A DNA stretch of 64,000 nucleotides, from positions 128,001 to 192,000 of the forward strand of contig CAWFJJ010000024.1 in assembly GCA_963816185.1 (NCBI GenBank), written 5' to 3'. This stretch comes from Thermoanaerobaculia bacterium (lineage in GTDB: Bacteria > Acidobacteriota > Thermoanaerobaculia > UBA5066). Shown here piece by piece: positions 1,846-62,871 of this stretch. The notes under the pieces are model-generated. The model was given only the letters and a program-made list of their open reading frames with translations, was not told the origin of the DNA and ran no database searches. Position 1 is the stretch's first letter; every line of letters starts with the position of its first letter. The translations under genes were made by a program, and so were the position numbers.

Positions 1846-1973
1846 GCCTGCTGTGCCCCGCTTTTCATCAGGATGTTTTTCTTAGAAGGTGAATATCCCC
1901 GGCTCCAACACCCTCAGCGCGTGAATGCGGACAACCGGCCTGAAAACGCAACGGCGAAGATTTCTTTCTTCTG

Positions 1974-2118
1974 ATATGCGGCGGCTGCAGTTGCAGCCCT
2001 GGCCGGCCTGATTGGACGCGGGGGGTCCGGGGGCGCCCGAAGGCAAGCCCCCGGAGAGCGCGCGCAAGCGCGCCGCGCAGCGGTCTTCGATCCTTGACAT
2101 CGGTCATTCGGGAAATAC
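1974..2118. repeat. Composite hairpin repeat element, copy 1 (small palindrome, 40-bp GC hairpin, 31-nt spacer, right IR arm)
   Basis: atatgcggcggctgc is shared with 15345 and 24024; 2021-2060 is identical to 50399-50438; ccttgacatcggtcattcgggaaatac is identical to 24124-24150. Confidence 0.85.
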
Positions 2119-2131
2119 ACGTTCCCCACAC

Positions 2132-2968
2132 TCAGCGCCCGAATGCGGACAAATGACCGGAGAACAAAGTGGCATGCTCTCTTTCCTTTTCCTCTCTTTC
2201 TAAGAAAATTTTCTTTCTTTCTTCCTTGCCTGTCTGAATCGCATCCAGCAGGGAAAGATTCAGCAGGCTCGTCTTTTCTTTCATCTTCGCGTCCCGCGTC
2301 TTCTCGAGCACGAGGCGTGAGGACAGGCCGTCGAGGAGCGACACGCTCTGCGGCCAGCGGTCCAAGCACGCGCGGTCCCAGCCCGCCCGCGCCGCATCGG
2401 CCGCGAGCACGATGCGCGCCGCGGTGCCTGTGACGCGGTAGGGCGCGAGGACGAGGAGCGCCGCGTCGTGAAAGCGCGCGCGACGCGCGAGGCGCAGCCA
2501 GACGGCGTCGTCGAAACGCCGCCTGAAGATGCGTGAGAGCCCGAGGTCGAGGACGACGAGCGCGAAGCCCGTCGCGAGGACGGTCTCGGCCGCGGCGAGC
2601 GCGGGTTTCAACCCGCGGGGGCGCAGCCACAGCACCCGCGAGAGCTCGGCGCCGGCGGCGGCCGCGCCCTGCGGGTCGAAGTGGTCGCCGGGATCCACGA
2701 GCGCGGCGGCTTCGCCCGTCTGCGTCGTCGCGGCGAGCGCGGAGAGGGCCACCGAGAAGCGGCCCGAGGACATGCGCCCCGACATCTCCACGAGAGCGCC
2801 GCGGGGCAGCCCGCCTCCCAGCAGCCGGTCCAGTCCCTCGATTCGCGTGGGCAGAAACTCCGGCGCGAACCGTTCGCGCGAAAGTCCGGAGGCGGTGGTC
2901 AGCCGGGCGGCGATCTCTCGAGGTAAGTCAGGCAGGGGCAGCGGGGCGGGAAGAGACAGCGCCGACAC
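2132..2968 (-). CDS. imuA: ImuA/RecA-like protein
   Basis: LPTRIEGLDRLLGGGLPRGALVEMSGRMSSGRFS (degenerate Walker A), AALVDPGDHFDP, LVVLDL. Confidence 0.85.
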   Translation of the reverse strand: MSALSLPAPLPLPDLPREIAARLTTASGLSRERFAPEFLPTRIEGLDRLLGGGLPRGALVEMSGRMSSGRFSVALSALAATTQTGEAAALVDPGDHFDPQGAAAAGAELSRVLWLRPRGLKPALAAAETVLATGFALVVLDLGLSRIFRRRFDDAVWLRLARRARFHDAALLVLAPYRVTGTAARIVLAADAARAGWDRACLDRWPQSVSLLDGLSSRLVLEKTRDAKMKEKTSLLNLSLLDAIQTGKEERKKIFLEREEKEREHATLFSGHLSAFGR

Positions 2969-2974
2969 GCGGCA

Positions 2975-3011
2975 AACGTAGGTCCGCTCGAGACGTAAGT
3001 CAAGCGTAAGT
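2975..3011 (-). promoter_or_regulatory. Putative sigma70 promoter of imuA (TTGACT-N17-TACGTT) with ACTTACG direct repeats over the -35
   Basis: Minus strand reads acttacgcTTGACTtacgtctcgagcggaccTACGTTtgccgcGTG; the -10 lies 6 nt before the start codon. Confidence 0.55.
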
Positions 3012-3032
3012 TTTTATGGCTGGGAAGAGGCT

Positions 3033-3638: not shown

Positions 3639-3684
3639 GACGCCGCCATTCTGCGCCCTGCGGCGTCCGCCACGTCGAGGTTTG

Positions 3685-4149: not shown

Positions 4150-4193
4150 GGCCCGACGATACCAAGCGCTGCGCGAGACTCCGCGCCCGCGGG

Positions 4194-4768: not shown

Positions 4769-5290
4769 TCAGCGCTGATACGTGCCGACGAGCTCGGCCC
4801 GCGCGAGCACGTGCGACTTGATGGCGGCTTCGAAGCGCTCCTTCGTCGGAGGCGGCGGGCTGAGAGACGCGACGTCAAGCGCGTAGAGGCGATGCGAGTA
4901 ACGATGAGTCCCCGATGGGGGGCAGGGGCCGCGATAGCCGACCGAGCCGAAATCGTTGGAGCCCTCGGCGGCGCCCGCGGGCAGCGTGCCGGGTTTGAGG
5001 CCTTCGGCGAGGGACGTCGTGGACGCCGGGATGTTGAAGAGGAGCCAGTGGGTGAAGCCGCTCGCGTCCGGGTCGTCTACAACCACCGCGAAAGAGCGCG
5101 TGCCGGCCGGAACACCGGTCCAGGTGAGCGGCGGAGAGACGTCGCCTCCGTCGCAGGAGTGGGGCTTCGGGATCGCGGCACCCGCGCGGAAGGCGGACGA
5201 CGAAAGCGTCATCCCGTGGCTCAAGTCTCGGCCGCACGACGTCGCGAGAAGGAGGAGAGCAGAGAAAAGGGCCTTGGCTTCAGGTCTCAT
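4769..5290 (-). CDS. YbhB/YbcL (PEBP, Raf-kinase-inhibitor-like) lipoprotein
   Basis: Lipobox LATSC; SPPLTW, DDPDA..FTHW, GYRGPCPP..HRY. Confidence 0.9.
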   Translation of the reverse strand: MRPEAKALFSALLLLATSCGRDLSHGMTLSSSAFRAGAAIPKPHSCDGGDVSPPLTWTGVPAGTRSFAVVVDDPDASGFTHWLLFNIPASTTSLAEGLKPGTLPAGAAEGSNDFGSVGYRGPCPPSGTHRYSHRLYALDVASLSPPPPTKERFEAAIKSHVLARAELVGTYQR

Positions 5291-6045
5291 GGAAGCTCCA
5301 GGTCGAGCGTGAGATGAAGAAGGGCCGTGAGGTCTCCTTCCGTCGAGACGACTCCCTTCTTGTAGCCTTCGGGGCTGCCCGGCGGCGCATAGAGTCCGGG
5401 GATCGTCCGCGGAGCCACGAGCGCGAGCGTCACGGGATGCGACCCGCGAAACGTCGCGTCCACCGGCACGATCGCGGTCGCGCGCGCGAGCTCCGTCGCG
5501 ATCACCTTCCCGATCTGAACGTGAAGAACCTCTCGTGCCGGAGCCGCGAGAAGCGGAATGCGGCCTACGAACTGCCCGATGACGGTGTTCAGGGCCGCGC
5601 CGAGGATCGGCCCCACGGCGTTCGTGCGCTCGACGAAGAGGCACGCGTGGAGGTTCACATGGCTCGACACTTTCACGGCGCCGCCGAAGAACGGATTCCC
5701 GTTCTGATCGGGCGGGAGATCCGCCGCGGCGATCGTCTGTCCTGAGGACGCCGCGAACGGAAGGTGCGCGGAGGCGAGCGCGGAGCTCTCGCCGGAAGCG
5801 GCCGGGTCGGGGTCCTCGAGCTGAAGGACGAGCGAGAGATCCGTCGCCTTCACGCCTTCGCCGGGCCAGCCGTTGTGCTTCACGTCGATCGAGACGAAGG
5901 AGACGGTGAGAGTTGGGGCGGCGGGAGACGAGGATCTTCTTGCTTTCGGAGCGAGCCGAGAGGGCGAGCCCTTAGCCGGGCGGCTGATCGCAGAGGGTTT
6001 CGGTGGTTTTCTCTTAGAAAGTGAATGGGACCCGGGGTTTCGCAT
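5287..6045 (-). CDS. Hypothetical protein
   Basis: Long ORF with host-like codon usage, stop overlaps the next start, RBS-like GGAGG upstream; no family recognised. Confidence 0.6.
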   Translation of the reverse strand: MRNPGSHSLSKRKPPKPSAISRPAKGSPSRLAPKARRSSSPAAPTLTVSFVSIDVKHNGWPGEGVKATDLSLVLQLEDPDPAASGESSALASAHLPFAASSGQTIAAADLPPDQNGNPFFGGAVKVSSHVNLHACLFVERTNAVGPILGAALNTVIGQFVGRIPLLAAPAREVLHVQIGKVIATELARATAIVPVDATFRGSHPVTLALVAPRTIPGLYAPPGSPEGYKKGVVSTEGDLTALLHLTLDLELP

Positions 6046-6298
6046 CGGGCCTCCTTCCGGCTTCGGCGGCGCCAGCGATTCTTTCACCTTCTAAGAAAAA
6101 TCAACCGTCCCGTTGCTTCGGTGTAGCAAGTCGCGCTGCGGCGGCACCGGCTGCGTCATTCACCCTTCTAAGAAGATCCACTTTGACGGGTTGCTTCGCG
6201 GTAGAACGTCACGAGTCGCCGGGATTCGCCGGAGAGGGAGCAGAAATCCCTTCTGCTCCTTCTGTCCCCGTAGAATCCACCCCTTGCAGGAGGATTCG

Positions 6299-6868
6299 AT
6301 GAAACGCCTCTCGTCTCTCTCTCTCGGGGCTTTCGCGCTGTTGGGTCTGCTTCTGGCCGCTCGCCCCGCTCTCGCTCGCGACATGGCGGGCGTCAGCCTG
6401 CCCGACACGCTTTCGGCGGGCGACAAGACGCTCAAGCTGAACGGCCTCGGCTTGCGGAAAAAGGCCATCTTCAAGGTCTACGTGGGCGGTCTCTATCTGG
6501 AGGCGCCGTCGAAGGACGCCGCGGCGATCGTCGCCGCCGACGCGCCAAAAGCGGTTCGCATGCACTTTCTTCGCGACCTGAAGAAGTCACAGCTCACGGA
6601 TGCCTTTTCGGAGGGCTTCGAAGCAAATGCGAAGGCGAAGGCAGCGGCCCAGAAGGCTGCTCTCGACAAGATGCTCGCCCTCGTGCCCGACGTGAAGGAA
6701 GGCGAGACGCTGTCGTTCGTCTACGTGCCCGGGAAGGGGACGACCTTCTTCGCCGGCGCCAAAGCGCTCGGGACGTTCGAAGGCAAGGATTTCGCCGACG
6801 TCATCTTTCTGCTCTGGCTCGGGCCGAAGCCTCCGTCCGAGGATCTGAAAAAGGGAATGCTGGGTTGA
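6299..6868 (+). CDS. Chalcone-isomerase-like periplasmic protein
   Basis: Signal peptide; LKLNGLGLRKK..FKVYVGGLYL...IFLLWLGPKPPSEDLKKGMLG; AGGAGG RBS. Confidence 0.85.
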   Translation: MKRLSSLSLGAFALLGLLLAARPALARDMAGVSLPDTLSAGDKTLKLNGLGLRKKAIFKVYVGGLYLEAPSKDAAAIVAADAPKAVRMHFLRDLKKSQLTDAFSEGFEANAKAKAAAQKAALDKMLALVPDVKEGETLSFVYVPGKGTTFFAGAKALGTFEGKDFADVIFLLWLGPKPPSEDLKKGMLG

Positions 6869-8955
6869 CGAACGGCGCCCCTCTTCAGAGCCTGCTCTCC
6901 GAAAAACGCTTCGATCTCGTCGAAACTGCCTTCCTGGACGCGCTCTCGGATCCCGTCGCGAAATCCGAAACGCTGCTCGCGGCGGTGCGCGGCCTCGCCC
7001 GGGCCGGCCAGAAGGCACGTCTTCAAGGGGTCGCCGGAATGGCCGAGGCCGAGCTGAAGGGGAAATCCTCCGACTCGGCCACGGCGCGCCTTCGCTGGAC
7101 GATCCTGAAGGAAGCGGTGCGCGCCGGGGCGACACCCTCTACGCCCGACGGCTTTCACAGGCTCTTCGAAGAAGTCCTGGCCGCCGCCTGGCCGTCCCAT
7201 CCGTCGCTCCCGGCCCTCCTCGGTCGCTTCAAGTTCCGCGAGGCGAAGGATCCCGCGGACGGGCTCGCGCGGGCCGAGAGGGCCGAGAAGTGGCTGCCGT
7301 TCGAGGTCGGCCGCGTCTTTTCGATGGCGGGCCGCGGGGCAGGCAAGGTCGTCGAGACGAACTTCGCTCTCGACTCCGTTCGCATGGACTTCGAGGCGGC
7401 GAAGGGAATCGCGATTCCGATCGGCGTGGCGTCGAAGGGCCTGGTGCCGCTTCACGAGGGGCATTTCCTGTTCGAGAAGCTCACGGCTCCCGGCGCCCTG
7501 AGGGAGCGAGTCGTCGCCGACCCCGGCCTCGCCCTGAAGCATCTCATCGAGTCCTTCGGCCGCTCGCTCACGATGGCCGAGGTGAAGGAGGCCGTGAAGG
7601 GCCTGATCACGGAGGACGCGTGGAGCTCGTGGTGGGCCGCGGCGCGCAAGAATCCGCAGGCCGTCGTACACGGGAGCGGAAAGACCGCGACGGTGGAATG
7701 GTCGCACTCGGCGGATGCGGCGGACGCCTCTCTTCTTGCGCGCTTCGAGAAAGCTTCGCTGAGGGACCAGATCGACCTCTTCCGGAAGAATCAGAAGCGC
7801 TCGGCGGAGCTCGCCATCGCCATGGCCAGGGCGCTCGCGAAGGAGGCCGAGGCGCTCGAGGACCGGGATCCCGCGCTCGCTTTCGAGATCGCGGTCCTCG
7901 TCGAGAAAATTCCGAGCGTCTCTCTCGCGGGCGCAATCGAGAAACACGTTCTCGGGCAGCCGTTGGCGCTCCTCCCGCGCCTCACGGACCGCGTGATGCG
8001 CGAGCGGGCCCTGGAGATCGTCGTCAAGGAGCGGCCTGCGGAGGCTCCCGGGATCCTCGCGGACTGGTTCTTCAAAGAGGAGGACGTGCGCACGCTCGAA
8101 GCGATCGACCGTCGCCTCGCCGAGATCGAGCCCGACACGCGCGAGCGCACGCTCGAGAAGCTCCTCAAGTCGCCCCGCGTGGGGCCGCGCGCGTTCGTCT
8201 GGTTTGCGCAGCGTTCCGCTCAGGACGAGTCCTTCCGGGCCCGCCTCAACCCGGCGGTTCTCTCGCGCCTTCTCGACGCGCTCACGTGGGACGAGCTGGG
8301 AGCCGCCCGCTCGAAGGTGAGGGAGATGTTCGACCGGACCGGTCTGGTGGCCGGCTGGCTCGTGAAGCAGGCCACCGTCGAGGACGCGCGCGTCTTTCTC
8401 GAAGCGCTCTCGCGCCACCACGAGCTCGAGCCGCACCGGCGCGACGGGCTCGTGGCCGCCGCCGAGATGCGCTTCCCCGATCTCAGGCGAACGGAGGACG
8501 ACACCTTCTTCGTCACGGCCCCGGCGATCGAGGCAAAGCGCAAGGAGCTGGAGAACATCCTGAAGGTCGAGATCCCCGAGAACACGAAGGGGATCGCGCT
8601 CGCGGCCGCAGAAGGTGATCTCACGGAGAACTTCGAGTACAAGGCGCGGCGCGAGAAACAGCAGCTCCTGTCGGCTCGCGCGGGCAAGATCCAGGAGGAG
8701 CTCGGGAAAGCGCGCGCCCTCGACTCCGCGACGGTGGACACGACCGAGGTGCGGCCGGGAGCCCGGGTGACCCTGAAGGGCGCGAAAGGCGCGAAGACCG
8801 CCACGCTCCTGGGGCCCTGGGATTCGAAACCCGAAGAGGGCGTCTATTCGTATCTCTCGGATCTGGGAAAAGCGCTGCTCGGAAAGACGGTCGGGGAGAA
8901 GGCGAACGTGCTCGGAGAAGAGATGACGATCGAGAAGATAGAGGTCTTCGTATAG
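6865..8955 (+). CDS. GreA/GreB family elongation factor with a ~540-aa N-terminal extension
   Basis: C-terminal IPENTKGIALAAAEGDLTENFEYKARRE...LLGPWDSKPEEGVYSYLSDLGKALLGK. Confidence 0.85.
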   Translation: MTNGAPLQSLLSEKRFDLVETAFLDALSDPVAKSETLLAAVRGLARAGQKARLQGVAGMAEAELKGKSSDSATARLRWTILKEAVRAGATPSTPDGFHRLFEEVLAAAWPSHPSLPALLGRFKFREAKDPADGLARAERAEKWLPFEVGRVFSMAGRGAGKVVETNFALDSVRMDFEAAKGIAIPIGVASKGLVPLHEGHFLFEKLTAPGALRERVVADPGLALKHLIESFGRSLTMAEVKEAVKGLITEDAWSSWWAAARKNPQAVVHGSGKTATVEWSHSADAADASLLARFEKASLRDQIDLFRKNQKRSAELAIAMARALAKEAEALEDRDPALAFEIAVLVEKIPSVSLAGAIEKHVLGQPLALLPRLTDRVMRERALEIVVKERPAEAPGILADWFFKEEDVRTLEAIDRRLAEIEPDTRERTLEKLLKSPRVGPRAFVWFAQRSAQDESFRARLNPAVLSRLLDALTWDELGAARSKVREMFDRTGLVAGWLVKQATVEDARVFLEALSRHHELEPHRRDGLVAAAEMRFPDLRRTEDDTFFVTAPAIEAKRKELENILKVEIPENTKGIALAAAEGDLTENFEYKARREKQQLLSARAGKIQEELGKARALDSATVDTTEVRPGARVTLKGAKGAKTATLLGPWDSKPEEGVYSYLSDLGKALLGKTVGEKANVLGEEMTIEKIEVFV

Positions 8956-9023
8956 AAAGATCGAAGACTTTGCTTCGGATGAGGATTCGGATCTCGGATT
9001 TTCTTAGAAAGGTGGAGGAAGCA

Positions 9024-11096
9024 ATGCGCGACAAGGACGGCACCGGCGGCAGGGCGGCGGCGGTCCCCGTTCACCTTCTAAGAAAAGCGCCATCGCGCGC
9101 TGCGAGAGGTCTGCTCGTGCGTGCCAGCGGAGCCCGAGGGGTCTTTCTCTTTCTAAGCAGAATCTCTCTCCTCTTCTTCGTCTTCTTCGGACCCATCCCG
9201 GCGCGCGCCGCAGAGAATGTCGTTCTTCCGAACGAGAACCTCGTCGCCGACGGGCTGCCTCCGATCCCGAAGGCGCTGGCGGAGCGCGTTGCGGCGTACA
9301 CGGAGTCGCGGGGTGCGACCTTCGAGGCGTGGCATCCCGTGCGCCGCGAGATGATCATCGGCACGCGCTTCGCCGACGTGCCGCAGATCCACCGGGTGAA
9401 GTTCCCGGGCGGGGCGCGCACGCAGCTCACGTTCTACCAGGAACGCACGGGCGGGGCGAGATTCCGCCCGCTCACCGGCGACGGCTTCGTCTTCAACAAG
9501 GACGTCGGCGGCGGCGAGTGGTACCAGCTCTTCTGGCACGACGAGAAATCCGGCAAGGTCACGATGTTCACGGACGGTAAGTCCCGTAACACGGGCGGAG
9601 ACTTCTCGCATTCCGGCAAGTGGCTCGCGTACCAATCCACGCGGCGGAACGGGAAGGACGACGACGTCTACGTCGTCGACCCCGCCGACCCGAAGACCGA
9701 GAGGAAGGTCCTCGAGGTCTCGGGCGGCGGCTGGGGCGTTTCCGACTGGTCGCCCGACGACAAGACGCTTCTCGTCGGGGAATACATCTCCGCGAACGAG
9801 AGCCGGTACTGGCTCGTGGACGCAACGACGGGCGCGAAGAGCCTCGCGACGCCCGAGTCGAAGGAGAAGGTCGCGTGGGGCCGCGCCGTCTTCGCGAAGG
9901 ACGGGAGGTCTCTCTATACGACGACGGACTCCGGTGCGGAGTTCCACCGCCTCGTCTCTCTCGATCTCGCATCGAAGAAGATCTCCGTGCTGACGCCCGG
10001 CATCGAATGGGACGTGTCCTCGCTCAGCCTCTCCGACGACGGCGGTAAGCTGGCATTCGTCGTGAACGAGGGCGGCGTCGAGACCTTGCACGTCCTCGAC
10101 ACGGCCACGAGAAAGGAGATCGCGCTCCCGAAGATCCCGCTCGGGACGATCGGCGCACTGCGCTTCCACGCGAACGGAAAGGACCTCGCCTTCACGCTGG
10201 CCTCGGCGCGCTCCACTTCCGACGTGTACTCGATCGACGTGACGGCCGGTCCGTCCGGGAAGGTCGAGCGCTGGACGGAGAGCGAGCTGGGCGGCCTCGA
10301 TCCCGCGACCCTCTCCGAGCCCGAGAAGATTTCGTGGAAGAGCTTCGACGGGCGCACGATCACGGGATTCCTCTATCGCCCGCCCGCTTCCTTCCAGGGC
10401 CCGCGCCCCGTGATCGTCAACATCCACGGCGGCCCCGAGGGGCAGTACCAGCCGGGCTTCCTCGGCCGGTACAACTTCTACCTGAACGAGCTCGGGATCG
10501 CGCTGATCTTCCCGAACGTGCGCGGTTCGTCGGGCTTCGGCAAGACCTTCCTCACGCTCGACAACGCGGAAAAGCGCGAGGATTCCGTCAAGGACATCGG
10601 CGCGCTCCTCGACTGGATCGCCGCGCAGCCGTCTCTCGACAAGGGCCGGGTCATGGTGATGGGCGGCTCGTACGGCGGGTACATGACGCTCGCGTCGATG
10701 ACCCATTTCAACGACCGCTTCCGGTGCGCCGTCGACGTCGTCGGAATCTCGAACTGGGTCACGTTCCTCGAGCACACGGAAGGCTACAGGCGCGACTTGC
10801 GACGCGCCGAGTACGGCGACGAGCGGGACCCGAAGATGCGCGAGCGACTGCTCGCGATGTCGCCCCTCACGAACGCCGGCAAGATCACGAAGCCGATGTT
10901 CATCGTCCAGGGCCGGAACGACCCCCGCGTGCCGTACACCGAGGCCGAGCAGATGGTCGCGGCGATCAAGAAGAACGGCGGGCCCGTGTGGTACCTCCTC
11001 GCGAAGGACGAGGGCCACGGCTTCAGCAAGAAGAAGAACCAGGACTTCCAGTTCCTCGCGACGCTGAAGTTCGTCGAGGACCACTTGCTCAAGTAG
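9024..11096 (+). CDS. S9 family prolyl oligopeptidase / acylaminoacyl peptidase (start uncertain)
   Basis: Beta-propeller plus IHGGPE, GGSYGG nucleophile, QGRNDPRVP, DEGHG. Confidence 0.9.
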   Translation: MRDKDGTGGRAAAVPVHLLRKAPSRAARGLLVRASGARGVFLFLSRISLLFFVFFGPIPARAAENVVLPNENLVADGLPPIPKALAERVAAYTESRGATFEAWHPVRREMIIGTRFADVPQIHRVKFPGGARTQLTFYQERTGGARFRPLTGDGFVFNKDVGGGEWYQLFWHDEKSGKVTMFTDGKSRNTGGDFSHSGKWLAYQSTRRNGKDDDVYVVDPADPKTERKVLEVSGGGWGVSDWSPDDKTLLVGEYISANESRYWLVDATTGAKSLATPESKEKVAWGRAVFAKDGRSLYTTTDSGAEFHRLVSLDLASKKISVLTPGIEWDVSSLSLSDDGGKLAFVVNEGGVETLHVLDTATRKEIALPKIPLGTIGALRFHANGKDLAFTLASARSTSDVYSIDVTAGPSGKVERWTESELGGLDPATLSEPEKISWKSFDGRTITGFLYRPPASFQGPRPVIVNIHGGPEGQYQPGFLGRYNFYLNELGIALIFPNVRGSSGFGKTFLTLDNAEKREDSVKDIGALLDWIAAQPSLDKGRVMVMGGSYGGYMTLASMTHFNDRFRCAVDVVGISNWVTFLEHTEGYRRDLRRAEYGDERDPKMRERLLAMSPLTNAGKITKPMFIVQGRNDPRVPYTEAEQMVAAIKKNGGPVWYLLAKDEGHGFSKKKNQDFQFLATLKFVEDHLLK

Positions 11097-11159
11097 ACGC
11101 AGTCACGGACTTTCCGTCGCGTTTCGGAACATCCAGGGACCCGATGAGGGCGATCGCGA

Positions 11160-12041
11160 TCATTTTTCGCCAGCCTGCCTCGTGATGCGCTCCGGATGAG
11201 TGTAGACATTGAAGCGCTCGCCGCGCAGGAAGCCGACGAGAGTCAGTCCCGTCTCTTCGGCGAGATCGACGGCGAGGCTCGTAGGCGCCGACACGGCGGC
11301 GACGATCGTGACGCCGGCGAGCGCTGCCTTCTGGGCGATCTCGAAGCCGAGCCGGCCCGAGGCGAGAAGGATCGGGGGACATGGTCGCCGGCTCCTCAGG
11401 ATCGCGCCGATGGCTTTGTCGGTCGCGTTGTGACGTCCGACGTCCTCTCGAGCGAGGAGGAAGGTCCCGTCTGCTTCGAAAAGGCCCGCCGCGTGGAGCC
11501 CGCCCGTGGAGGAGAACAACGACTGTCGGGCGCGGAGGGCGCCCGGAAGGGACGTGAGAAGGGACGCCGAGATCTCGAGGTCTCTCGACGCGGCGGTCCG
11601 CGTTGTCTTTCTTTCCCGGCGCGCAGCCGCCACGAGAGCGACGACGTCATCGACCGACGTGCGGCCGCAGACCCCGCAGGCCGAGCCCATCACCGTGGCC
11701 CGGCGGGCGCGTCGGCGGTCCGCGCGCGGGGCGAGCGTGACGACTCGAACGTTCTTCGCGAGCTCGGGCGCGACACGGGCGTCGGACGGCGGCTCGATGG
11801 CCACGATCTCGGCGATCTCCTCGATGACGCCCTCGCCGAAGAGAAGGCCGACGACGAGGTCGTCGTCGTCGCACGGCGTCCGCATCGTGACGACGAACCG
11901 CTCGGGCTCGGCGCCGCCTTCGCGCAACCGGATCTCGAGGGGCTCTTCGGCGACGAGGAGGTCCTTCTCCCAGCGTGTGCCTTTTTCGTCGCTTCGGAGG
12001 ACTAGCGTCGACACGGACGCGTCGCGGTGTGTGTCCGCCAT
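11160..12041 (-). CDS. fdhD: Formate dehydrogenase accessory sulfurtransferase FdhD
   Basis: EEPLEIR, TMRTP, SACGVCG, TGGLHAA, REDVGRHNA, SAPTSLA. Confidence 0.92.
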   Translation of the reverse strand: MADTHRDASVSTLVLRSDEKGTRWEKDLLVAEEPLEIRLREGGAEPERFVVTMRTPCDDDDLVVGLLFGEGVIEEIAEIVAIEPPSDARVAPELAKNVRVVTLAPRADRRRARRATVMGSACGVCGRTSVDDVVALVAAARRERKTTRTAASRDLEISASLLTSLPGALRARQSLFSSTGGLHAAGLFEADGTFLLAREDVGRHNATDKAIGAILRSRRPCPPILLASGRLGFEIAQKAALAGVTIVAAVSAPTSLAVDLAEETGLTLVGFLRGERFNVYTHPERITRQAGEK

Positions 12042-12105
12042 CCGGCTAGCCTACTTCACCCCGCGACGCCCGGACCCGGGCTCGCGTCGTTGCCTCCTTG
12101 GTTGG

Positions 12106-12648
12106 TCAGATCCCCCCGCCGTCCACCAGCGCCTCCTCGTACACCCTCTCCCAGAAGGGCTTCACCTCCGTGTCGAAAAGAGAGTACGTGCCCATCTGAA
12201 CGAGAGGCGGGGAATAGACGTGGAGCGTGACGAGGTCACCGCTGTCTTCCGCGAGGTTCGAAACCTGGTGGATGTCGTCGTCCTGCGTCGCGCAGATCGC
12301 GCCCGTCTTCAGCTCGTGCGATCGGACCGCATAGATCATCCGGTTGCGGGCGCGCTCGAAGACGGTCTCGAGCGCAGTGCCGTGGAGGACGCGAACGCCG
12401 CAGCTCGAGCCGCGGTGGTCGTGGATGGGGCTCCTCTGGCCGTTCCGCCAGCAGAGGACGAGCGCCTGGTAGGCCGGCCCGGATTGCAGGACGTTCCGGC
12501 GGTAGCCGCCGCCGTCGAACTTCACGTACGGCCGCACGTCCTCGAGTGTGATCCAGAGTTCCGCCAGGGCGCGCTTCAGCTCGGAAAGGGGGATGCGCTC
12601 ACGCCAAGCGTCGAGCTCCTCGAGAACCCTGCTGAGAGGGGACATCAT
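12106..12648 (-). CDS. Cysteine dioxygenase family protein
   Basis: YRRN, LCWRNGQRSPIHDH, IHQV, TLHVYSPP. Confidence 0.85.
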   Translation of the reverse strand: MMSPLSRVLEELDAWRERIPLSELKRALAELWITLEDVRPYVKFDGGGYRRNVLQSGPAYQALVLCWRNGQRSPIHDHRGSSCGVRVLHGTALETVFERARNRMIYAVRSHELKTGAICATQDDDIHQVSNLAEDSGDLVTLHVYSPPLVQMGTYSLFDTEVKPFWERVYEEALVDGGGI

Positions 12649-12700
12649 GAGCCGCTTTGGGAATCCTAGCATCGGCCGGGTGCTTCGCTAGACTCCGGAC

Positions 12701-15130
12701 GTGGATTTCCGGAACGCCTCACGCGCCCTGAAAGAGAAGGTGTTGCAGATCACGCGCAACGTCCGGGGACGCGTGTCTCCGGCCCTTCGCGGCCTCACCG
12801 ATCGCCTCCGCCGCGTTCCACATCCCGTGCTCTTCTTCGTCGGAGCCACGGGCGCTCTTTTTTTCGTCGCCGGGATCGTCGTCATCCTCTACTTTTCACA
12901 CGTCGTGTCGCGCACGATGGACGGGCGGCGGTGGTCGCTTCCCACTCGCCTTTATTCGGACGCGTGGGCGGTGCGGCCCGGCGACACGCTTTCGGCCGAC
13001 GACGTGGTCCGGCGCCTCACGCGCCTGCGCTACGTCGAGGTCCCAAAACCGCCGGTTGCCGCGGGGCAATACGCGCGGGTTCACGGACGACTCGCGGTCA
13101 CCCTGAACGCGCGGGAGACCGCCTGGGGCCGAACGCCGGGTATCCCGGCCGAGATGGAATTCTCGGGGCGGCGCGTTGCGGCGCTGAAGCGGGCCGACGA
13201 CGGGACGCCGCTTCCCTACGTCGTGTTCGAGCCGGAGGTCGTGGGCTCCGTCTACGACGAGAAGATGCAGGACCGCACGCTCGTCACGCTCGACCAGGTC
13301 CCTCAGGTGGTGCTCGACGCGATTCTCACGACCGAGGACCGCGACTTCTTCACGCACGGCGGCATCGCGTTCAAGCGACTCGTGGGCGCGGTCCTTCAGG
13401 GCGCGGCGCGCGGGGGCAACGTACGCGGAACCTCCACGCTCACGCAGCAGCTCGTGAAGAACATGTTCCTGACGCCCGAGCGCAAGCTGAAGCGCAAGGC
13501 CGTCGAGGCGCTGATGGCGGTCATCCTCGAGGCGAAATACAGCAAGAAGCAGATCCTCGAAGCGTACTTGAACGAGATCTACCTCGGTCAGCGCGGCTCG
13601 ATCTCGGTCACGGGCGTCGAGGAGGCCTCTCGCTTCTACTTCGGAAAGAGCGTGTCGCGCCTGGACCTCCCGGAGGCCGCGATGCTCGCGGGCCTCATCT
13701 CGTCGCCCGGCAAGTACTCGCCTTACCGAAACCCCGACAACGCCCGCCAACGCCGCGCCCTCGTCCTCAAGGGGATGCTCGAGCAGAAGAAGATCGACAA
13801 GGCGGCCTACGAGGCCGCGCTCCTCGCGCCGCTCACGCGGTCGAAGGGGCCTCCGGCGGGGATCATCGCGCCGCACTTCGTCGACTTCGTCCTCTCCCAG
13901 GCGAAGGAGACGCCCGGGTTCGTGAAGGAGGACGGTCTGTCCGTCTACACGACTCTCGATCCCGACATGCAGCAGGCCGCACAGGCGGCCGTCCTCAAGG
14001 GGCTCGAAGACCTCGAAAAGCGCTACAAGCGCCTTCGGCCGCACGGCGAGGAAGACATGCTCCAGGCCGCCGTCATCGCGCTCGATCCGGCGACGGGCTC
14101 CGTGCGCGCTTTGGTCGGGGGGCGGGACTACCAGGTCAGCCAGTTCAACCGCGTCGTGCAGGCTCGCCGCCAGCCGGGCTCGCTCTTCAAGCCGTTCGTG
14201 TACCTGACGGCGTTCGGGAAGCGCGATCTCCCGAAGCCGATCACGCCCGCCTCGATTTTCGTCGACTCGCCCATCGCGCTCGTGTGGGGCAAGGGTGAGG
14301 ACGAGACATGGTCCCCGAGGAATTATGACGGCGATTTCCGCGGACCGATGACGGCGCGCCAGGCGCTCGAGCAGTCCATCAACATCCCGACGGTGCGCAT
14401 TGCGGTCACGGAGACTTCGCCGGGGCGCACGCTCCTCCCGGACATCGTCGACACCGCTCGGCGCGCCGGGATCACGTCGCCCATGAAGCCTTACCCCTCG
14501 CTCGCCCTGGGCGCGTTCGAGACGAGTCCGATGGAGATCGCGGCCGCCTATTGCATGTTCGCGAACGGCGGTTTCCGCGTTCGGCCGAACGCGCTCCTCG
14601 GCATCGTGAGCTCGAATTCACGGCGTATCGAGAGGAAAGACGAGCCCGTCGTGCGCGGGGCCGATGCCGACGCGGTCTCGATCCTCGACTCGGTGCTGCA
14701 GGGGGTCGTGGACCGAGGCACCGGCGCGTCCGCCCGCCGCCTCGGGGCGCAGGGCATCCTCGCCGGCAAGACCGGCACGACGAACGACGGACGCGACGCC
14801 TGGTTCATCGGCTTCTCGCCGCGCCTTCTCGTGGCCGTCTGGGTCGGTTTCGACGACAACCGCGGCCTGAACCTGTCCGGCTCCTCGGCGGCCCTGCCGA
14901 TCTTCGCCGACTTCGTCCGGCGCCTTCCTTCGCAGTACTTCGAGGTGCCGTTTCCGACGACGCCGGGCATCGTCACGGCTTCCATCGATCCGACGACCGG
15001 CATGCTCGTGACCGAAGAGTGCCCGAAATCGCTCAACGAGGTCTTTCTCGCGGGCACCGCGCCGACGGAGCGTTGCACCGTTCACGGCGGCGTCGGGCCC
15101 GGCCCCGGCATCGCCGACGGAGCTCCATGA
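12701..15130 (+). CDS. Class A penicillin-binding protein (PBP1B-like)
   Basis: TM anchor, UB2H-like region, EDRDF, STLTQQLVKN, RQPGSLFKP, SIN, KTG motifs. Confidence 0.92.
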   Translation: MDFRNASRALKEKVLQITRNVRGRVSPALRGLTDRLRRVPHPVLFFVGATGALFFVAGIVVILYFSHVVSRTMDGRRWSLPTRLYSDAWAVRPGDTLSADDVVRRLTRLRYVEVPKPPVAAGQYARVHGRLAVTLNARETAWGRTPGIPAEMEFSGRRVAALKRADDGTPLPYVVFEPEVVGSVYDEKMQDRTLVTLDQVPQVVLDAILTTEDRDFFTHGGIAFKRLVGAVLQGAARGGNVRGTSTLTQQLVKNMFLTPERKLKRKAVEALMAVILEAKYSKKQILEAYLNEIYLGQRGSISVTGVEEASRFYFGKSVSRLDLPEAAMLAGLISSPGKYSPYRNPDNARQRRALVLKGMLEQKKIDKAAYEAALLAPLTRSKGPPAGIIAPHFVDFVLSQAKETPGFVKEDGLSVYTTLDPDMQQAAQAAVLKGLEDLEKRYKRLRPHGEEDMLQAAVIALDPATGSVRALVGGRDYQVSQFNRVVQARRQPGSLFKPFVYLTAFGKRDLPKPITPASIFVDSPIALVWGKGEDETWSPRNYDGDFRGPMTARQALEQSINIPTVRIAVTETSPGRTLLPDIVDTARRAGITSPMKPYPSLALGAFETSPMEIAAAYCMFANGGFRVRPNALLGIVSSNSRRIERKDEPVVRGADADAVSILDSVLQGVVDRGTGASARRLGAQGILAGKTGTTNDGRDAWFIGFSPRLLVAVWVGFDDNRGLNLSGSSAALPIFADFVRRLPSQYFEVPFPTTPGIVTASIDPTTGMLVTEECPKSLNEVFLAGTAPTERCTVHGGVGPGPGIADGAP

Positions 15131-27245: not shown

Positions 27246-27344
27246 GGAAGCGCAAGGGGCCCGGCGGCCCTCCTGGTCTTCAAAACCAGCGTGCCCGTTC
27301 CGAGAGGGGCGGCGGGTGGGTTCGACCCCCACACGCTTCCGCCA
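27246..27344 (+). tRNA. selC: tRNA-Sec (anticodon TCA)
   Basis: GGAAGCG...CGCTTCC-G-CCA acceptor, CTGGT-CTTCAAA-ACCAG anticodon arm, long variable arm, GTGGG-TTCGACC-CCCAC T arm; TAGAAT -10 just upstream. Confidence 0.92.
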
Positions 27345-50521: not shown

Positions 50522-51261
50522 TCAGCGGCGATATCGCTCCGCAAGCTGCTCGGGCGATTCGCCCCGCCTCGCCTTCCAGAGGATCTTCCAGTTCCCGAGC
50601 ACGGTCTCGTGCGACGCCGCGCTCGAGGTAACGGCGTGGGGAGGTTTCCACCGCGTCCCGGAGAATCTCGATGCGCCCTTCTTTCTTGAGCCTCCTCGCG
50701 AAATCCCAGTCGTCGAGGAGCGGCCAGGGCGGATGGCCGCCGAGCTTCTCGTAGACGTCGCGCCTGACGAACGGAGCCTGGTCGCCGTACGGAACGCGCG
50801 TGAACGCCGTGCGGGCATTCGCCCAGAAGGCGACCCAGCGCATGCGCGCGCCGCCGCCGGAGAAAGACAGCCGGAACGCGCCGCCGACGGCCCGCGAGGC
50901 GATCGCGCGGCGGATCGCCTGCTCCCAGCCGGCGGGCAGCAGCGTGTCGGCGTGAAGAAAGAGGAAGATGTCTGCTGAAGAGGAAGAAGAAGAGGAAGAA
51001 GACGATTCTTTGAAGGTGAAGAGGGCCGCCTCGCGCAGGCGCTGTCCGCGCGCCGCGTGCGACAGGTGGATACGAGCCCCTGCACGCGCGAAGGCCTCAC
51101 ACACATTCGAAGAAATCTCCGAATCTGCCGCGACGACGAGCGAAACGGGTCCCGCCGCCTGCCAGAACCCTCTCGAAGAAAATCCCCGGTGGGGGACCTT
51201 CGCCGGCCGCCACGGGGACGATGACCGCGATGCGATCCGAAGCCGGCGACGGCGGTACCAT
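50522..51261 (-). CDS. GT2 glycosyltransferase (TIGR04283-like), one indel, poly-Ser insertion
   Basis: IAVIVP, ARGQRL, FLHADT, GAFRL, YGDQ, TSPRRY. Confidence 0.8.
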
Positions 51262-54850: not shown

Positions 54851-56056
54851 CGGCGGCCACTCCCTCGACCGGCCTCGACGTCCTGCTGGCGGAAGGCGGG
54901 AGGGCGGCCGAGATTCTTCGAGGGAAGAGGATCGGACTTCTCGCGAATGCCGCCTCCGTGACGGCCGGCTTCGTCCCCGCGCCCCGCGCGCTCCTCGGTG
55001 CGGACTACGACGTGCGCGTCCTCTTCGGGCCCGAGCACGGCTTCTGGGGCGCGGCGCAGGACATGGAAGCGGTCGGGCCGGGAGAACCTTCCCGTCTGCC
55101 CGTTATTTCCCTTTACGGTGAGACGTTCGACGACCTGTCGCCGAAGGGCGAGCAACTCGAAAGCATCGACGCCGTCGTGTGCGATCTGCCCGACGTCGGG
55201 AGCCGCTACTACACGTTCGTGTGGACGACGGCGCTGATGATGAAGTCCTGCGCTGCGCGTGGAATTCCAGTCGTCGTCCTCGACCGGCCGAATCCGCTCG
55301 GCGGAGAGGCCGTCGAGGGCAACCTGCCCGAGAACAAGCTGCTCTCCTTCGTCGGTTTGTATCCGGTGCCGGTGCGCCATGGAATGACTCCGGGGGAGAT
55401 CGCGCGCTTCGTGAACGCCGAGCACGGCCTTCGCTGCGACCTCACGGTCGTGCCGATGAAGAGCGGCAAGAGGGTCGCGTCGCGCACGGAGATCGGGGAG
55501 ACGCGGCCCTGGGTGCTGCCGTCCCCGAACATGCCGGCACCCGAAACCGCATGGGTCTATCCCGGCGCCTGCCTCGTCGAGGGCACGAATCTCTCGGAAG
55601 GGCGGGGCACGACGCGCCCCTTCGAGCTCGTCGGGGCGCCGTGGCTTTCCGCCGACGACGCGGCGGATGCGGCGAACGCGCTCGGCCTGTCGGGCGTCGT
55701 CTTCCGGCCTCACGTCTTCAGGCCCACGTTCCAGAAGCACGCCGGAAAGACTTGCGGCGGCGTACAGGCGCACGTGACGGACCGCAGCGCGTTCCGGCCC
55801 TTCGAGGCGTATCTGCGCCTTCTGAAAGCCCTTTACGATCTCGATCCGGACCGCTTTCGCTGGCGGACGGAGACGTACGAATACCGCGACGACGTCCCGG
55901 CGATCGATCTCCTGACGGGCACCGCGACGTTCCGGCGCCTCGTGAGCGAAGGGGCGAGCCTGGACCCCTGGATCGGAAGCTTTCAGGCCGACGATCGCGC
56001 GATTCGCTCGGCAATGCGCGACCGCAGCCTGCTCTATCCCTTCGAAGAAATTCCCC
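54847..56056 (+). CDS. DUF1343 exo-beta-N-acetylmuramidase NamZ-like (possibly fused to MobB)
   Basis: LFGPEHG, SLYG, DVGSRYYTF, DRPNP, RHGMT.GE, SPNMP, SEGRGTTRPFE. Confidence 0.88.
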
Positions 56057-56613
56057 GGTCGTCCTCCTCGTCACCGGCGCCCACGAATCCGGCAAGACGA
56101 CGGTCGCCGTGAAGCTCATCGAGGCGTTCGTGAAGGCCGGGCTCGAGTGTGGGCTCCCTCAAGCACACGGACCACGAGTACGAGACGGACGCCCCCGGCA
56201 AGGACTCGCAGCGCCACAAGGCGGCGGGCGCCGAACCCGCGGTCCTCGTCGCCGGGCGGAGAAGCGCGGTGCATCGCGGGCCATCGGAGACTTCTGCTTC
56301 GGACCCGGGTGCGGGCGCCGGCGAGGCTCGCGAGAGACCAGCTCTGTCCGTTTTCTTAGAAGGGGAATATGGGCTTGGCTCGTGTGACATCGTCGTCGTC
56401 GAGGGGTTCCGAAGCGAGGCGTATCCGAAGATCGAAGTCTGCCGCGCGGCCACTGGCCGCGCGGCACTCTGCGAGAACGATCCAAACGTCGTCGCCGTCG
56501 TGACCGACCGGCCGACGAATCACCCTTCTTCCATTCCCCGATTCACTTTCGAAGAAATCCCCGGTTCCCTTCTTCCCTTTCTAAGAAGATCTTCAATTCT
56601 CTTTTCTCTCTAA
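56057..56613 (+). CDS. mobB: Molybdopterin-guanine dinucleotide biosynthesis MobB domain (no start codon of its own; indels)
   Basis: GAHESGKTT, KHTDH, GKDS.RH, DIVVVEGF..PKIEV. Confidence 0.8.
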
Positions 56614-56656
56614 GAAATCCCCGGTCTTCTCCTCTTTCTAGGACAATCCCGGTTGT

Positions 56657-60985: not shown

Positions 60986-60989
60986 GCGC

Positions 60990-62111
60990 ATGAGCTCGGC
61001 GCCCCGCGTCCGCGTGCGCCGGCGAGTCGGCGTCGTCTTCGGCGGCCCGTCTCGCGAGCACGGCGTGTCGTTCGTTTCGGCGGCATGCCTTCTCGAGAAC
61101 CTTCCCAAGAAGACGTACGAGGCGATTCCGCTCTTCGTCGGGAAGGATGCGGTCTGGCACGGGCCGTCCGCCTCGAAGGCCGAGCTCGAACGACAGCTCT
61201 CACGTCCCTCGAAGGAGCTGCTCCTCGACGGCATCAAGCCGGGCCACCGGGCGGCTCGCACGCCGGAGATCGTGGATTCGTTCTTCAGCGCCTGGCACGC
61301 GGCGGGGGCGGAGGTTCTCTTTCCGATCGTGCACGGGACGTTCGGCGAGGACGGAGTCCTGCAGGGCCTGCTTGAGTCGCTCGGGATCCCATACGTGGGC
61401 TTCGGCGTCGCGGCCTCGGCCGTGGGCATGGACAAGATTTTCATGAAGGCCGCCTATGCCGCGGCCGGGCTGCCTCAAGTGCAGTACGTCGCCTTCTCTC
61501 GCGCCGAGTGGACGTCGGACCATAGCCAGGCGTCGATCGTCGATCGCGCAAGCCACCTGGGATTCCCGCTCTTCGTCAAGCCGGCGTGCGCGGGCTCGTC
61601 GGTGGGCGTCTCGAAAGTCAAATCCGAAGCCGGGTTCGAATCCGCTGTCGAGGACGCGCTCCTCGTGGACGGGCGCGTTCTGGCGGAGAGGGGAGTGGAT
61701 GCCCGCGAGATCGAATGCTCTGTCCTCGAAGGCGAGCCGGGCCGGCCGACGGAAGCCTCCCTTCCGGGGGAGATCGTGCCGGGCCGCGAGTTCTACGATT
61801 ACGAAGACAAGTACATCGGCACGCTCTCGCGCTCGATCATCCCGGCCGACCTGCCCGTGTCCTTCCGGGAAGAGGTCCGAGGCCTCGCGGTCCGCGCGTT
61901 CGACGTCCTCGGCGGCGCCGGCTTCGCGCGCGTGGACTTCTTCCTCGAGCGCGGCACGCACCGGCTCCTCGTGAACGAGATCAACTCCCTGCCGGGCTTC
62001 ACGCCCATCTCGATGTTTCCGAAAATGTGGGAAGCCACGGGGCTGCCGCTGCCCAAGCTCCTCGACCGTCTCGTCAAGAGCGCGTTCCAACGGCCGGTAC
62101 GCGGGCGCTGA
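60990..62111 (+). CDS. ddl: D-alanine--D-alanine ligase
   Basis: GGPSREH, HGTFGEDG, FVKP..GSSVG, FYDYEDKY, NEINSLPGFT. Confidence 0.94.
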   Translation: MSSAPRVRVRRRVGVVFGGPSREHGVSFVSAACLLENLPKKTYEAIPLFVGKDAVWHGPSASKAELERQLSRPSKELLLDGIKPGHRAARTPEIVDSFFSAWHAAGAEVLFPIVHGTFGEDGVLQGLLESLGIPYVGFGVAASAVGMDKIFMKAAYAAAGLPQVQYVAFSRAEWTSDHSQASIVDRASHLGFPLFVKPACAGSSVGVSKVKSEAGFESAVEDALLVDGRVLAERGVDAREIECSVLEGEPGRPTEASLPGEIVPGREFYDYEDKYIGTLSRSIIPADLPVSFREEVRGLAVRAFDVLGGAGFARVDFFLERGTHRLLVNEINSLPGFTPISMFPKMWEATGLPLPKLLDRLVKSAFQRPVRGR

Positions 62112-62139
62112 CGACCACCAGGCGGGTCGGGCCCTGACC

Positions 62140-62871
62140 TTACCGATAGATGACGATGACTCCCGCGAGGCCCATCTCGCCGAGGGACTCACGAGCAGCT
62201 TCGGCCTCTTCGCGCGTCTTGTAAGGGCCGAACTTCACCCGCTTGAGCCCGCGATATTCCTCGATGTACGGGTTCGGGTAGCGCGCGGCGAGGCGGTTGC
62301 GAAGGCGGACCGCGTTCGCCTCGTCGCCGAACGCGCCGGCCTGGACGGCGAACGCGCCGACCTGCGCGTCGAACGCCCCTGACTCTGGACGGATTGCCGT
62401 ATTCGCGGCGGTCACGGGCGGCGGTTCGTCGGAGCCAGCCCGGACGCGGAAGTTGTCGCCGAGAGTCACGACGCGCAGCGTGATGGGTACGACGCCGTCT
62501 CCGACGGAGGCGATCTCCCGGGCGGCCGCCTTCGAGAGATCCAGGATGCGCCCCGCGACGAACGGCCCGCGGTCGTTGATCCTCACGCGGACGGTCTTCC
62601 CGTTCTTCTCGTTCGTCACGTCCACGACCGTGCCCAAAGGCAGCGTCCGGTGGGCGGCGGAGATCTTCTCGGGCCGGAACGTCTCGCCCGAGGCCGTCGG
62701 CAGCCCGTCGAACTCCTTCCCGTACCACGACGCGTAGCCGCGCTCGGAAGCGGGGAAGGTGACGGAAACGGGTGGCGCAGTTGCCTTCGGAGCGGACGAG
62801 CACGCAAGGATGGAGAGTCCGAAGAGGACGAGAGAGATTTCTTTGAAAGGAAATGGGGCGGGATGCTTCAG
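62140..62871 (-). CDS. rlpA: Septal ring lytic transglycosylase RlpA (lipoprotein, SPOR domain)
   Basis: ILAC lipobox, GYASWYG, TASGE, AAHRTLP, RINDRGPF, VQAGAF. Confidence 0.9.
   Translation of the reverse strand: MKHPAPFPFKEISLVLFGLSILACSSAPKATAPPVSVTFPASERGYASWYGKEFDGLPTASGETFRPEKISAAHRTLPLGTVVDVTNEKNGKTVRVRINDRGPFVAGRILDLSKAAAREIASVGDGVVPITLRVVTLGDNFRVRAGSDEPPPVTAANTAIRPESGAFDAQVGAFAVQAGAFGDEANAVRLRNRLAARYPNPYIEEYRGLKRVKFGPYKTREEAEAARESLGEMGLAGVIVIYR

Follow-up and report, generated by a model that had tools for sequence, protein, structure and literature searches.

The question raised by the stretch of DNA analyzed here (64,000 nucleotides; contig C24:128001-192000 in the genome assembly of a Thermoanaerobaculia bacterium, hereafter the window) is what a short AT-rich motif that recurs along it in clusters might be for. 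An earlier note, made from the letters of the window alone, had listed 31 copies of this motif and proposed that they were binding sites for a protein that organizes, loops or loads onto the chromosome. In this current study, the motif was followed through the whole assembly (5.09 Mb, 30 contigs, 67% GC, 94.9% complete) and through related genomes. The motif is not a gene-expression element. The reading that we tentatively favor is that it serves as a lineage-specific, double-stranded DNA signal, which may be kept by a transmission bias resembling that of DNA uptake sequences and may be read in pairs.

For scoring, a 20-nt weight matrix was derived from the genome and applied at thresholds of 14 or 16 bits. 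Enrichment was judged against a Markov-3 simulated genome; a reversed genome was no usable control, the motif being quasi-symmetric when reversed. At 16 bits or more, 907 sites were found in the genome versus 49 in the simulation; at 14 bits or more, the numbers were 1032 and 103. The core TTCTAAGAA has 337 genome copies, when by our arithmetic about 4 would be expected from base composition, and a 20-mer allowing at most 3 mismatches found 4 matches in the window versus 0 in 100 shuffles. The two strands are balanced (76 forward and 73 reverse exact 12-mers). When all copies were aligned, the motif was found to be ~26 nt long, about CCCYATTCACCTTC[T/G]AAGAAATC, with a pyrimidine tail of 20-30 nt on its 3' side. 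Information spans positions -11 to +14 around the core, followed by a weaker, G-poor and C/T-rich tail until about +30; no conservation further upstream of -11 appeared in this alignment. CTCTTC was present in 254 of 825 tails, compared with 40 expected. The core had been described as palindromic, which is true for TTCT-N-AGAA only; over its full length, the site is asymmetric. At position 3, the use of T or G tracks the reading frame, because T gives a stop in one frame of each orientation; in frames where T would create a stop, G is used instead.

The orientation of neighboring copies follows a strong rule. Among neighbors at most 150 nt apart, the order (-,+), with the reverse copy on the left and the forward copy on the right, was found 229 times genome-wide and the order (+,-) 6 times, with 44 cases each of (+,+) and (-,-). 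Among neighbors more than 2 kb apart, (+,-) prevailed (217, versus 16 for (-,+)). The reverse-then-forward arrangement reported in the earlier note was observed in all 10 window clusters and across the genome. When sites at most 200 nt apart were joined, 610 clusters were obtained (296 single, 224 double, 75 triple, 12 quadruple and 3 quintuple), in which the commonest patterns were '-+' (199), '-++' (36) and '--+' (32). The core-to-core distance of (-,+) pairs peaks at 66-70 nt, with tails to 200 nt, and falls below ~57 nt in just 17 of ~300 pairs; tandem copies favor ~30 and ~75-78 nt. Helical phasing of the pair spacing was not convincing: of 11 periods tried, 9 nt gave the lowest uncorrected p (0.025), and 10.5 nt gave 0.12. 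The suggestion of DNA looping thus gained no support.

The two arms of a pair vary independently of each other. (Pairs at 85 nt in Ser/Thr kinase genes, described below, were excluded from the counts of arm covariation, intragenic peptides, spacer similarity, phasing, folding and sense/antisense scores.) In 137 pairs, |z| was at most 2 at all positions but -4, where the arms agreed less often than expected (z -2.6), and the central position was mismatched between arms in 46 pairs. Since the arms are independent, each site appears to be read on its own. The DNA between arms is likewise not shared: 263 of 295 spacers had no similar partner spacer, and the 32 with a partner were mostly accounted for by a MITE-like repeat (MITE, miniature inverted-repeat transposable element), kinase paralogs or duplicated contigs. 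Some spacers are ordinary conserved coding sequence, such as the core of MobB. The pairs are thus not the ends of a MITE, as the earlier note had argued, and a MITE reading of the motif pairs was rejected; the true MITE in this genome is a separate element that lies beside or between arms.

A separate observation concerns Ser/Thr kinase-like paralogs (C24:603553-620975 and other loci), in which apparent (-,+) pairs occur at exactly 85 or 105-111 nt. These are false or co-opted sites, because the conserved residues F-F-E and F-E-E (TTCGAAGAA encodes F-E-E) spell the core by chance. Some TTCGAAGG-type matches are also due to chance inside conserved enzymes, for example a PurM-like protein, and some of the intragenic clusters counted below are chance coding matches of these two kinds.

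Gene positions behind the genome-wide counts were taken from our own crude codon-score caller, which called 4,093 genes over 85.9% of the genome; it misses genes and misplaces starts, and the genic and intergenic counts are therefore approximate. By these calls, 537 of the 907 sites were genic and 370 intergenic, such that 41% of sites lay in the 14% of the genome called non-coding. Of 903 copies, 327 had coding DNA downstream on the same strand and 336 on the opposite strand, and 240 had non-coding DNA there; single copies showed no preference for gene direction. The genes beside clusters are functionally unrelated (imuB-like, chalcone-isomerase-like, GreA fusion, S9 peptidase, MobB and alcohol dehydrogenase genes). 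These data agree with the view of the earlier note that the motif is indifferent to gene function and strand. Moreover, sense and antisense copies scored alike, both in 44 tandem intergenic pairs (23.7 versus 24.9 bits, p 0.23) and in 85 intragenic pairs (23.8 versus 24.3 bits, p 0.60), with equal tails. This likeness indicates a feature of the DNA that is the same for either strand, as opposed to an RNA signal of the sense strand.

Motif copies also enter reading frames. The midpoint of 156 of the 280 multi-copy (-..+) clusters fell within a confident gene, and the other 124 were intergenic (58 ++, 40 --, 19 divergent and 7 convergent); the cluster copy nearest a gene was mostly 0-75 nt past its stop codon. 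Ninety-six clusters lay at least 150 nt from either gene end and were translated in frame as stereotyped peptides: FLEGE, ISSK(G/V)EE or LLRK from reverse copies, PSSPSKKS, HLLRN or FEEI from forward copies, and runs of Ser, Leu and Pro from the tail. TTA makes up 0.27% of Leu codons in this genome and CTA 0.64%. In a codon control over confident coding sequences, F-L-E was written as TTC-TTA-GAA 39 times versus 0.20 expected, S-K-K as TCT-AAG-AAA 34 times versus 1.18, and F-E-E as TTC-GAA-GAA 66 times versus 12.6; for LRN the numbers were 6 and 0.01. This excess of rare codons points to a real DNA-level signal inside genes, and the enrichment of the motif holds by weight matrix and codon control alike.

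In a ComEA-like gene (C1:554689-555318) with two HHH_3 domains, a motif pair was seen with an ISSKGEE...PSSPSKKSSSS insert between the domains.

Within the window, 28 of the 31 copies of the earlier note reached at least 14 bits at their places and strands, although the positions given differ by 3-16 nt, since they refer to where a longer word begins. The remaining three (23890-, 30225+ and 50487-) are visibly degenerate copies, and two further weak matches (7165+ and 54922-) look like coding chance. The sites and the MITE-like repeats among them are as follows.

1874-1893 (-): motif copy, 28.0 bits; left arm of cluster 1, between the imuA/RecA-like and imuB-like genes; ortholog in genomes G003 and G011
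1965-2110 (ends approximate, no strand assigned): MITE-like 130-nt repeat between the arms of cluster 1
2192-2211 (+): motif copy, 31.5 bits; right arm of cluster 1
6006-6025 (-): motif copy, 23.2 bits; left arm of cluster 2
6083-6102 (+): motif copy, 31.0 bits; cluster 2
6160-6179 (+): motif copy, 25.0 bits; cluster 2, in tandem, 77 nt past the previous copy
8996-9015 (-): motif copy, 26.5 bits; left arm of cluster 3
9070-9089 (+): motif copy, 24.7 bits; N-terminal coding part of the peptidase, read HLLRKA
9145-9164 (+): motif copy, 23.0 bits, AAGCAG variant; signal-peptide coding part, read FLFLSRISLL
15233-15252 (-): motif copy, 29.5 bits; inside the glycosylase-like gene, read LIFLEGE
15339-15467 (+): MITE-like 130-nt repeat, in frame between the arms of cluster 4; missing here in most congeners
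15475-15494 (+): motif copy, 25.8 bits; glycosylase-like gene, read ISFSFKANL
23945-23964 (-): motif copy, 30.1 bits; left arm of cluster 5, with a degenerate further copy at ~23890-23915
24017-24120 (+): MITE-like repeat between the arms of cluster 5
24166-24185 (+): motif copy, 18.6 bits; right arm of cluster 5, whose other strand ends the neighboring gene
30128-30147 (-): motif copy, 19.4 bits; partner near 30225 degenerate here, ~22 bits in G003 and G011
30433-30452 (-): motif copy, 16.7 bits (weight matrix)
30498-30517 (+): motif copy, 19.9 bits (weight matrix)
37814-37833 (-): motif copy, 19.0 bits (weight matrix)
37900-37919 (+): motif copy, 25.7 bits (weight matrix)
38937-38956 (-): lone motif copy, 21.6 bits; inside a gene, kept in G003 and G011
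51001-51020 (-): motif copy, 21.4 bits (weight matrix)
51100-51119 (+): motif copy, 25.8 bits (weight matrix)
51166-51185 (+): motif copy, 20.6 bits (weight matrix)
56035-56054 (+): lone motif copy, 28.2 bits; end of the gene preceding MobB, read YPFEEIP
56348-56367 (-): motif copy, 24.1 bits; inside MobB, read VFLEGEYG
56542-56649 (+): four tandem motif copies, 30.4, 29.4, 26.4 and 17.6 bits, with periods of 31, 29 and 28 nt; C-terminal tail of MobB, up to the ATG of the next gene
62834-62853 (-): lone motif copy, 29.6 bits; the (+) partner seen in G003 and G011 was lost with a ~110-nt deletion

Synteny was compared over 64 kb with G011 and G003 (~82-94% nucleotide identity) and over 20 kb with G014, G001 and G008 (74-84%). 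Most window sites have a copy at the same place and strand in these congeners (21 of the 30 sites of at least 14 bits were matched). Over 38 ungapped ortholog pairs, identity was 91% in the core, 74% at positions -11..-1 and 9..14, and 47-57% in the flanks; between G011 and G003, spacers were barely alignable and the motif almost identical. Because the core is kept above its flanks at orthologous places, the sites are held against mutation, by selection or by some bias. At cluster 3, the reverse copy, read on the + strand, provides a run rich in purines located 6 nt ahead of the conserved ATG (9024) of an S9 peptidase gene, whose closest public loci (~90% protein identity) are in Thermoanaerobaculia/Acidobacteriota metagenome-assembled genomes. 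Of the 12 closest loci (72-91% protein identity), 10 carry this cluster with its copies in unchanged order and two (L001 and L002) lack the (-) copy, and the cluster was not found in more distant loci; the AAGCAG variant at 9145-9164 is kept in most of 12 orthologous loci.

Copies are also gained and lost. The peptidase leader carries 0, 1 or 2 forward copies according to species, and these states differ by a 75-nt in-frame segment, found in just some species, that contains the copy at 9070-9089; such a difference is what unequal exchange between tandem copies would produce. At cluster 5, the one presence/absence case that was aligned, G011 is without the inner ~260 nt and keeps both the purine and the pyrimidine tails, which looks like a deletion, and more distant species show other motif states at this gene end. 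The glycosylase-like protein (weak match to 8-oxoguanine glycosylases over residues 138-307; no Pfam match) behaves differently in its two arms: the forward copy lies in a loop of variable length among congeners, and the reverse copy replaces ordinary residues with no change in length relative to genomes of other families, a comparison in which one of the outgroup rows, L098, is from the unpublished genome G019. The idea that the motif might be the footprint of an insertion process is still conceivable, in that copies come and go by indels of 75-260 nt.

The distribution of the motif among relatives was then sharply bounded. The exact 12-mer was found in 28 of 28 genomes of the genus, at 21-210 copies each, and in 7 of 8 genomes of the sister genus, at 1-16 copies; it was found in 0 of 27 genomes of eight other genera of the family, and in 0 of 12 genomes from two other families of the order (one of them G019). 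In a class-wide sample (151 genomes, 67 genera), this genus alone was high, and other genomes had 0-2 copies. Genomes of the sister genus contain 6-45 core nine-mers, compared with 337 here, and all seven close pairs visible in them are (-,+). Among the 80 viral contig stretches listed for the 14-mer, there were single chance matches alone, and literature on the nine-mers of the motif gave eukaryotic STAT-type or unrelated matches only, among the matches listed.

The MITE-like repeat is 130 nt long, contains two GC-rich hairpins, is separate from the motif, and occurs at 41 loci of at least 90 nt genome-wide, two of which are duplicates because contig C14 repeats part of C24. In 28 of the 41 loci, a motif copy was found within 250 nt; copies to the left of the repeat were (-) in 15 of 17 cases, and copies to its right were all (+). 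Given that motif clusters cover less than 2% of the genome by our estimate, the repeat strongly prefers them. It is found upstream of the peptidase in L001 and L002, and at 15339-15467 it forms an in-frame insertion within the gene at 15127-16179. This gene and its cluster have a further copy, 100% identical, at C14:40952-42001. C14 thus seems to duplicate part of C24, through assembly redundancy or recent duplication, and some counts seem slightly inflated.

Taken together, these data describe a word that is independent, asymmetric, strand-symmetric, maintained, frame-invading and private to a lineage, which is the profile of uptake sequences. That a protein reads the site, that it reads sites in pairs and that an uptake bias drives their spread is what we infer. 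Each copy is an independent asymmetric site of ~26 bp with a 3' pyrimidine-rich tail, kept wherever DNA tolerates it: between genes, at gene ends, and in protein loops, linkers and signal peptides, where it is translated. A surface or periplasmic receptor would prefer DNA bearing the word, so that copies would be spread and maintained through transformation and recombination and not through transposition. If this receptor were two-fold symmetric and read two back-to-back sites, with inner ends facing and at least ~57 nt apart, both pairing and clustering would be explained. Genes for ComEC, DprA, two secretins and ComEA-like HHH_3 proteins were present above curated cut-offs in a profile search, and we count in favor of uptake that several small contigs of low GC are without any copy.

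Known uptake sequences offer a close comparison in several respects. According to two publications (PMC1939737, PMC2817400), the uptake signal sequences (USS) of Pasteurellaceae and the DNA uptake sequences (DUS) of Neisseriaceae, like the motif, are short asymmetric words with an extended flank, present in hundreds to thousands of copies. They are also, like the motif, common to a whole genus or family, equal on both strands, unrelated to gene direction, kept above background, and in excess in non-coding DNA yet frequent in frames at tolerant places. PMC1939737 puts 35-65% of copies of known uptake sequences inside reading frames and reports an excess in non-coding DNA with no orientation bias. 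In contrast to USS and DUS, most copies of the motif are paired back to back, at a distance of ~57 nt or more, or belong to tandem arrays, and no uptake system is known to need an orientation rule. The density of the motif is also lower (1 per 5.6 kb), and its distribution is clumped.

Several results weigh against an uptake signal. It is because a 229 to 6 orientation is shown by no known uptake system that we hold this reading only tentatively; according to PMC1939737, known uptake sequences occur as inverted repeats in just ~10% of cases and are bound singly. About 71% of copies of at least 14 bits (736/1032) lie in clusters, and 314 of the 610 clusters hold 2-5 copies. Tandem arrays with a period of ~30 nt resemble a repeat element, the spacing of clusters is clumped (mean 9.1 kb, median 4.5 kb, coefficient of variation (CV) 1.5, 0-14 clusters per 40 kb), and copies are gained or lost as blocks of 75-260 nt. 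The uptake genes prove nothing, as ComEC, DprA and HHH_3 were found in 10-11 of 14 control genomes, and 6 of these 14 had the secretin family. Neither a receptor nor a binding protein was identified, no systematic search having been made; nothing was found in print on transformation in this group, no cultured member of the genus is apparent from the titles of public records, and the gene positions behind the counts are those of a crude caller. We know of no uptake sequence in Acidobacteriota; a literature search for one in Acidobacteria gave one unrelated paper, and none was found for intergenic repeats in Thermoanaerobaculia.

One rival, which we regard as possible although rather unlikely, is that the copies are architectural or insulating sites: a genus-specific nucleoid protein would bind the asymmetric sites, and back-to-back pairs would mark segment boundaries for supercoiling, bridging or loops. 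The dyad of close (-,+) and distant (+,-) neighbors would fit a two-fold symmetric complex or two opposed polar sites, the ~57-nt minimum spacing resembles steric exclusion, positions are kept with the core conserved above flanks, and sites are enriched at gene borders. The MITE, too, favors the space at or between sites, much as insertion sequences favor repetitive extragenic palindromic (REP) sites (PMC1525189). A housekeeping organizer would oddly vary tenfold in copy number within a genus, with 6-45 versus 337 nine-mers against the sister genus; spacing is over-dispersed, the pairs lack convincing helical phasing, and 156 of 280 multi-copy clusters are inside genes, 96 of them deep inside, adding junk-like peptides. 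The sites parS, matS and those of NBS type are palindromes of few to tens of copies in defined chromosome regions. They resemble the motif as protein-read words indifferent to gene function; unlike them, the motif is asymmetric, paired, clumped and intragenic, with ~900 copies. Of the earlier proposal of a protein-read DNA signal, the comparison with uptake sequences remains the best reading, and a regular organizer of the parS or matS type was not borne out, given the over-dispersion and a copy number that differs ~fiftyfold from the sister genus. Nor do clusters fall every 3-12 kb as had been thought, their spacing being irregular (CV 1.5, median 4.5 kb).

It is also conceivable, if doubtful, that the motif is a selfish non-autonomous repeat like REP/BIME (BIME, bacterial interspersed mosaic element) or the Rickettsia palindromic elements, in which a unit of ~30-45 nt (motif and tail) would be copied, by an enzyme or through slippage and recombination, and would be tolerated within genes where it is in frame. 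The wide differences in copy number among species, the clumped distribution, tandem arrays with periods of 28-31 nt, block indels (the 75-nt peptidase segment, inserts in the glycosylase-like protein, and the 110-nt and 260-nt differences) and stereotyped translated peptides such as ISSKGEE ... PSSPSKKSSSS all agree with this. The unique spacers show, however, that copying does not act on whole pairs, and no covariation was seen between arms. Orthologous sites persist where flanking genes are 74-90% identical, with the core far better kept than the flanks, so that selection or conversion bias is needed rather than neutral decay, and at least one copy arose without a length change. A Y1 transposase (PF01797; the REP-associated tyrosine transposase, RAYT) gave 0 matches in the 94.9% complete genome in a search that was positive in 6 of 14 known genomes. 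REP/BIME do share with the motif a species- or genus-specific, interspersed distribution of short repeats (~600 clusters for the motif), units that alternate in orientation, positions kept among relatives and a role as preferred landing place of other mobile DNA (PMC1525189). The motif differs from them in not being a stem-loop, in its unpaired arms, long unique spacers and large intragenic share, and in the missing RAYT. REP/REPIN was accordingly rejected as an identity for the motif: there is no folding unit and no RAYT gene, and 156 of 280 clusters are inside genes by our own calls. Rickettsia palindromic elements are inserted in frame in genes as whole elements of 100-150 nt with conserved interiors. 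They and the motif are alike in being translated in frame in loops and termini of conserved proteins; in the motif, two words of ~26 nt are shared and the DNA between them is unique.

An improbable variant is that the copies act as polar barriers with a grammar like that of CTCF sites in animal chromosomes, convergent across multi-kb segments and divergent at boundaries. A genus-specific protein would then stop an SMC-type loop extruder or a helicase-nuclease from one side and so create non-overlapping loops; the clumped spacing and the many intragenic copies make this less likely.

More improbable still, and largely refuted, is an element acting in RNA by masking ribosome sites or as processing sites or terminator hairpins. 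The reverse complement is Shine-Dalgarno-like (AGAAGGTGA), the reverse copy of the S9 peptidase stands just before a conserved ATG, and at 102 of 903 copies a start codon that opens a long coding frame lies 3-40 nt further on. The 16S 3' end with the start of its spacer, GGATCACCTCCTTTCTAAGGGATCTC (C1, L242 3040-3070), also contains TCACC, TTCTAAG and ATCTC, three blocks that the motif has in this order as well; this likeness is a lead and not evidence, given the low complexity of both sequences. The start-codon distances are scattered rather than fixed, and a model with ribosome binding and start in the spacer, true for the S9 peptidase, was rejected since just those 102 copies qualify. Arms did not covary and were often mismatched centrally (46/137), spacers folded with z -0.30 versus -0.04 for random genomic DNA of the same length (n=50 each), sense and antisense copies were equally good, and no Rfam family was found at any cluster (window matches were to tRNA-Sec only).

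Least probable is an operator or promoter of a large regulon, or invertons whose inverted repeats flank short segments: 119 same-oriented copies lie within 150 nt of called starts and many intergenic clusters are upstream of genes, but there are 85 opposite-oriented copies in the same zone, 116 opposite-oriented versus 64 same-oriented copies after stop codons, clusters in all gene contexts (convergent and intragenic included), flanking genes of unrelated function, no sigma-70-like sites found in window 5000-16000, and mismatched arms that argue against site-specific inversion. By orientation and gene context, the motif is thus not a transcription-factor box confined to promoters. A role as 5'-leader element was likewise rejected, on orientation and the lack of sigma-70-like sites in that part of the window.

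Should uptake prove to be the explanation, the motif would extend uptake-type self-recognition words beyond Proteobacteria for the first time and would be the first such word to be read in pairs. It would also suggest that natural transformation is frequent in Acidobacteriota, here in a soil lineage that is uncultured. Should the sites be architectural, a bacterial chromosome would have a system of boundaries defined by sequence. Under both readings, about 100 proteins receive rare codons and stereotyped peptides (FLEGE, ISSKGEE, PSSPSKKSSSS) from the motif, which furthermore shifts start-codon calls and attracts a MITE. It is also a clean marker for binning contigs of the genus, and motif-free contigs of the assembly are suspect enough to check. 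On contigs C2, C12, C18, C26, C6 and C29, motif clusters number 0 to 0.3 per 10 kb, compared with 1.0-1.5 on C1, C24 and C28; several of these motif-poor contigs are lower in GC, and they may be islands, mobile DNA or mis-binned.

A number of minor observations were made in the window. When contigs from four soil DNA sequencing runs were mapped to 5200-11200, no joints were seen and coverage was thin at both clusters, which is not evidence of assembly breaks; no RNA run was among the sequencing runs listed. MobB (~56060-56160) is split over two frames, with the P-loop part GAHESGKTT in one, for which we saw no canonical start codon, and the remainder, from SLKHTDHEYETD onward, in another; this is an assembly frameshift or a broken gene. 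At 268-2968 (-), an imuB-like gene (IMS family) and a RecA-fold imuA-like gene are adjacent, with cluster 1 and its MITE between them, and this pair may be an SOS mutagenesis cassette. The gene at 6865-8955 (+) encodes a 696-residue protein with GreA/GreB domains at its C-terminal residues 550-687 and a long N-terminal part that has no Pfam match. Finally, a tRNA-Sec lies at 27246-27340 (+) (Rfam RF01852, 60.5 bits), and the organism therefore probably makes selenoproteins.

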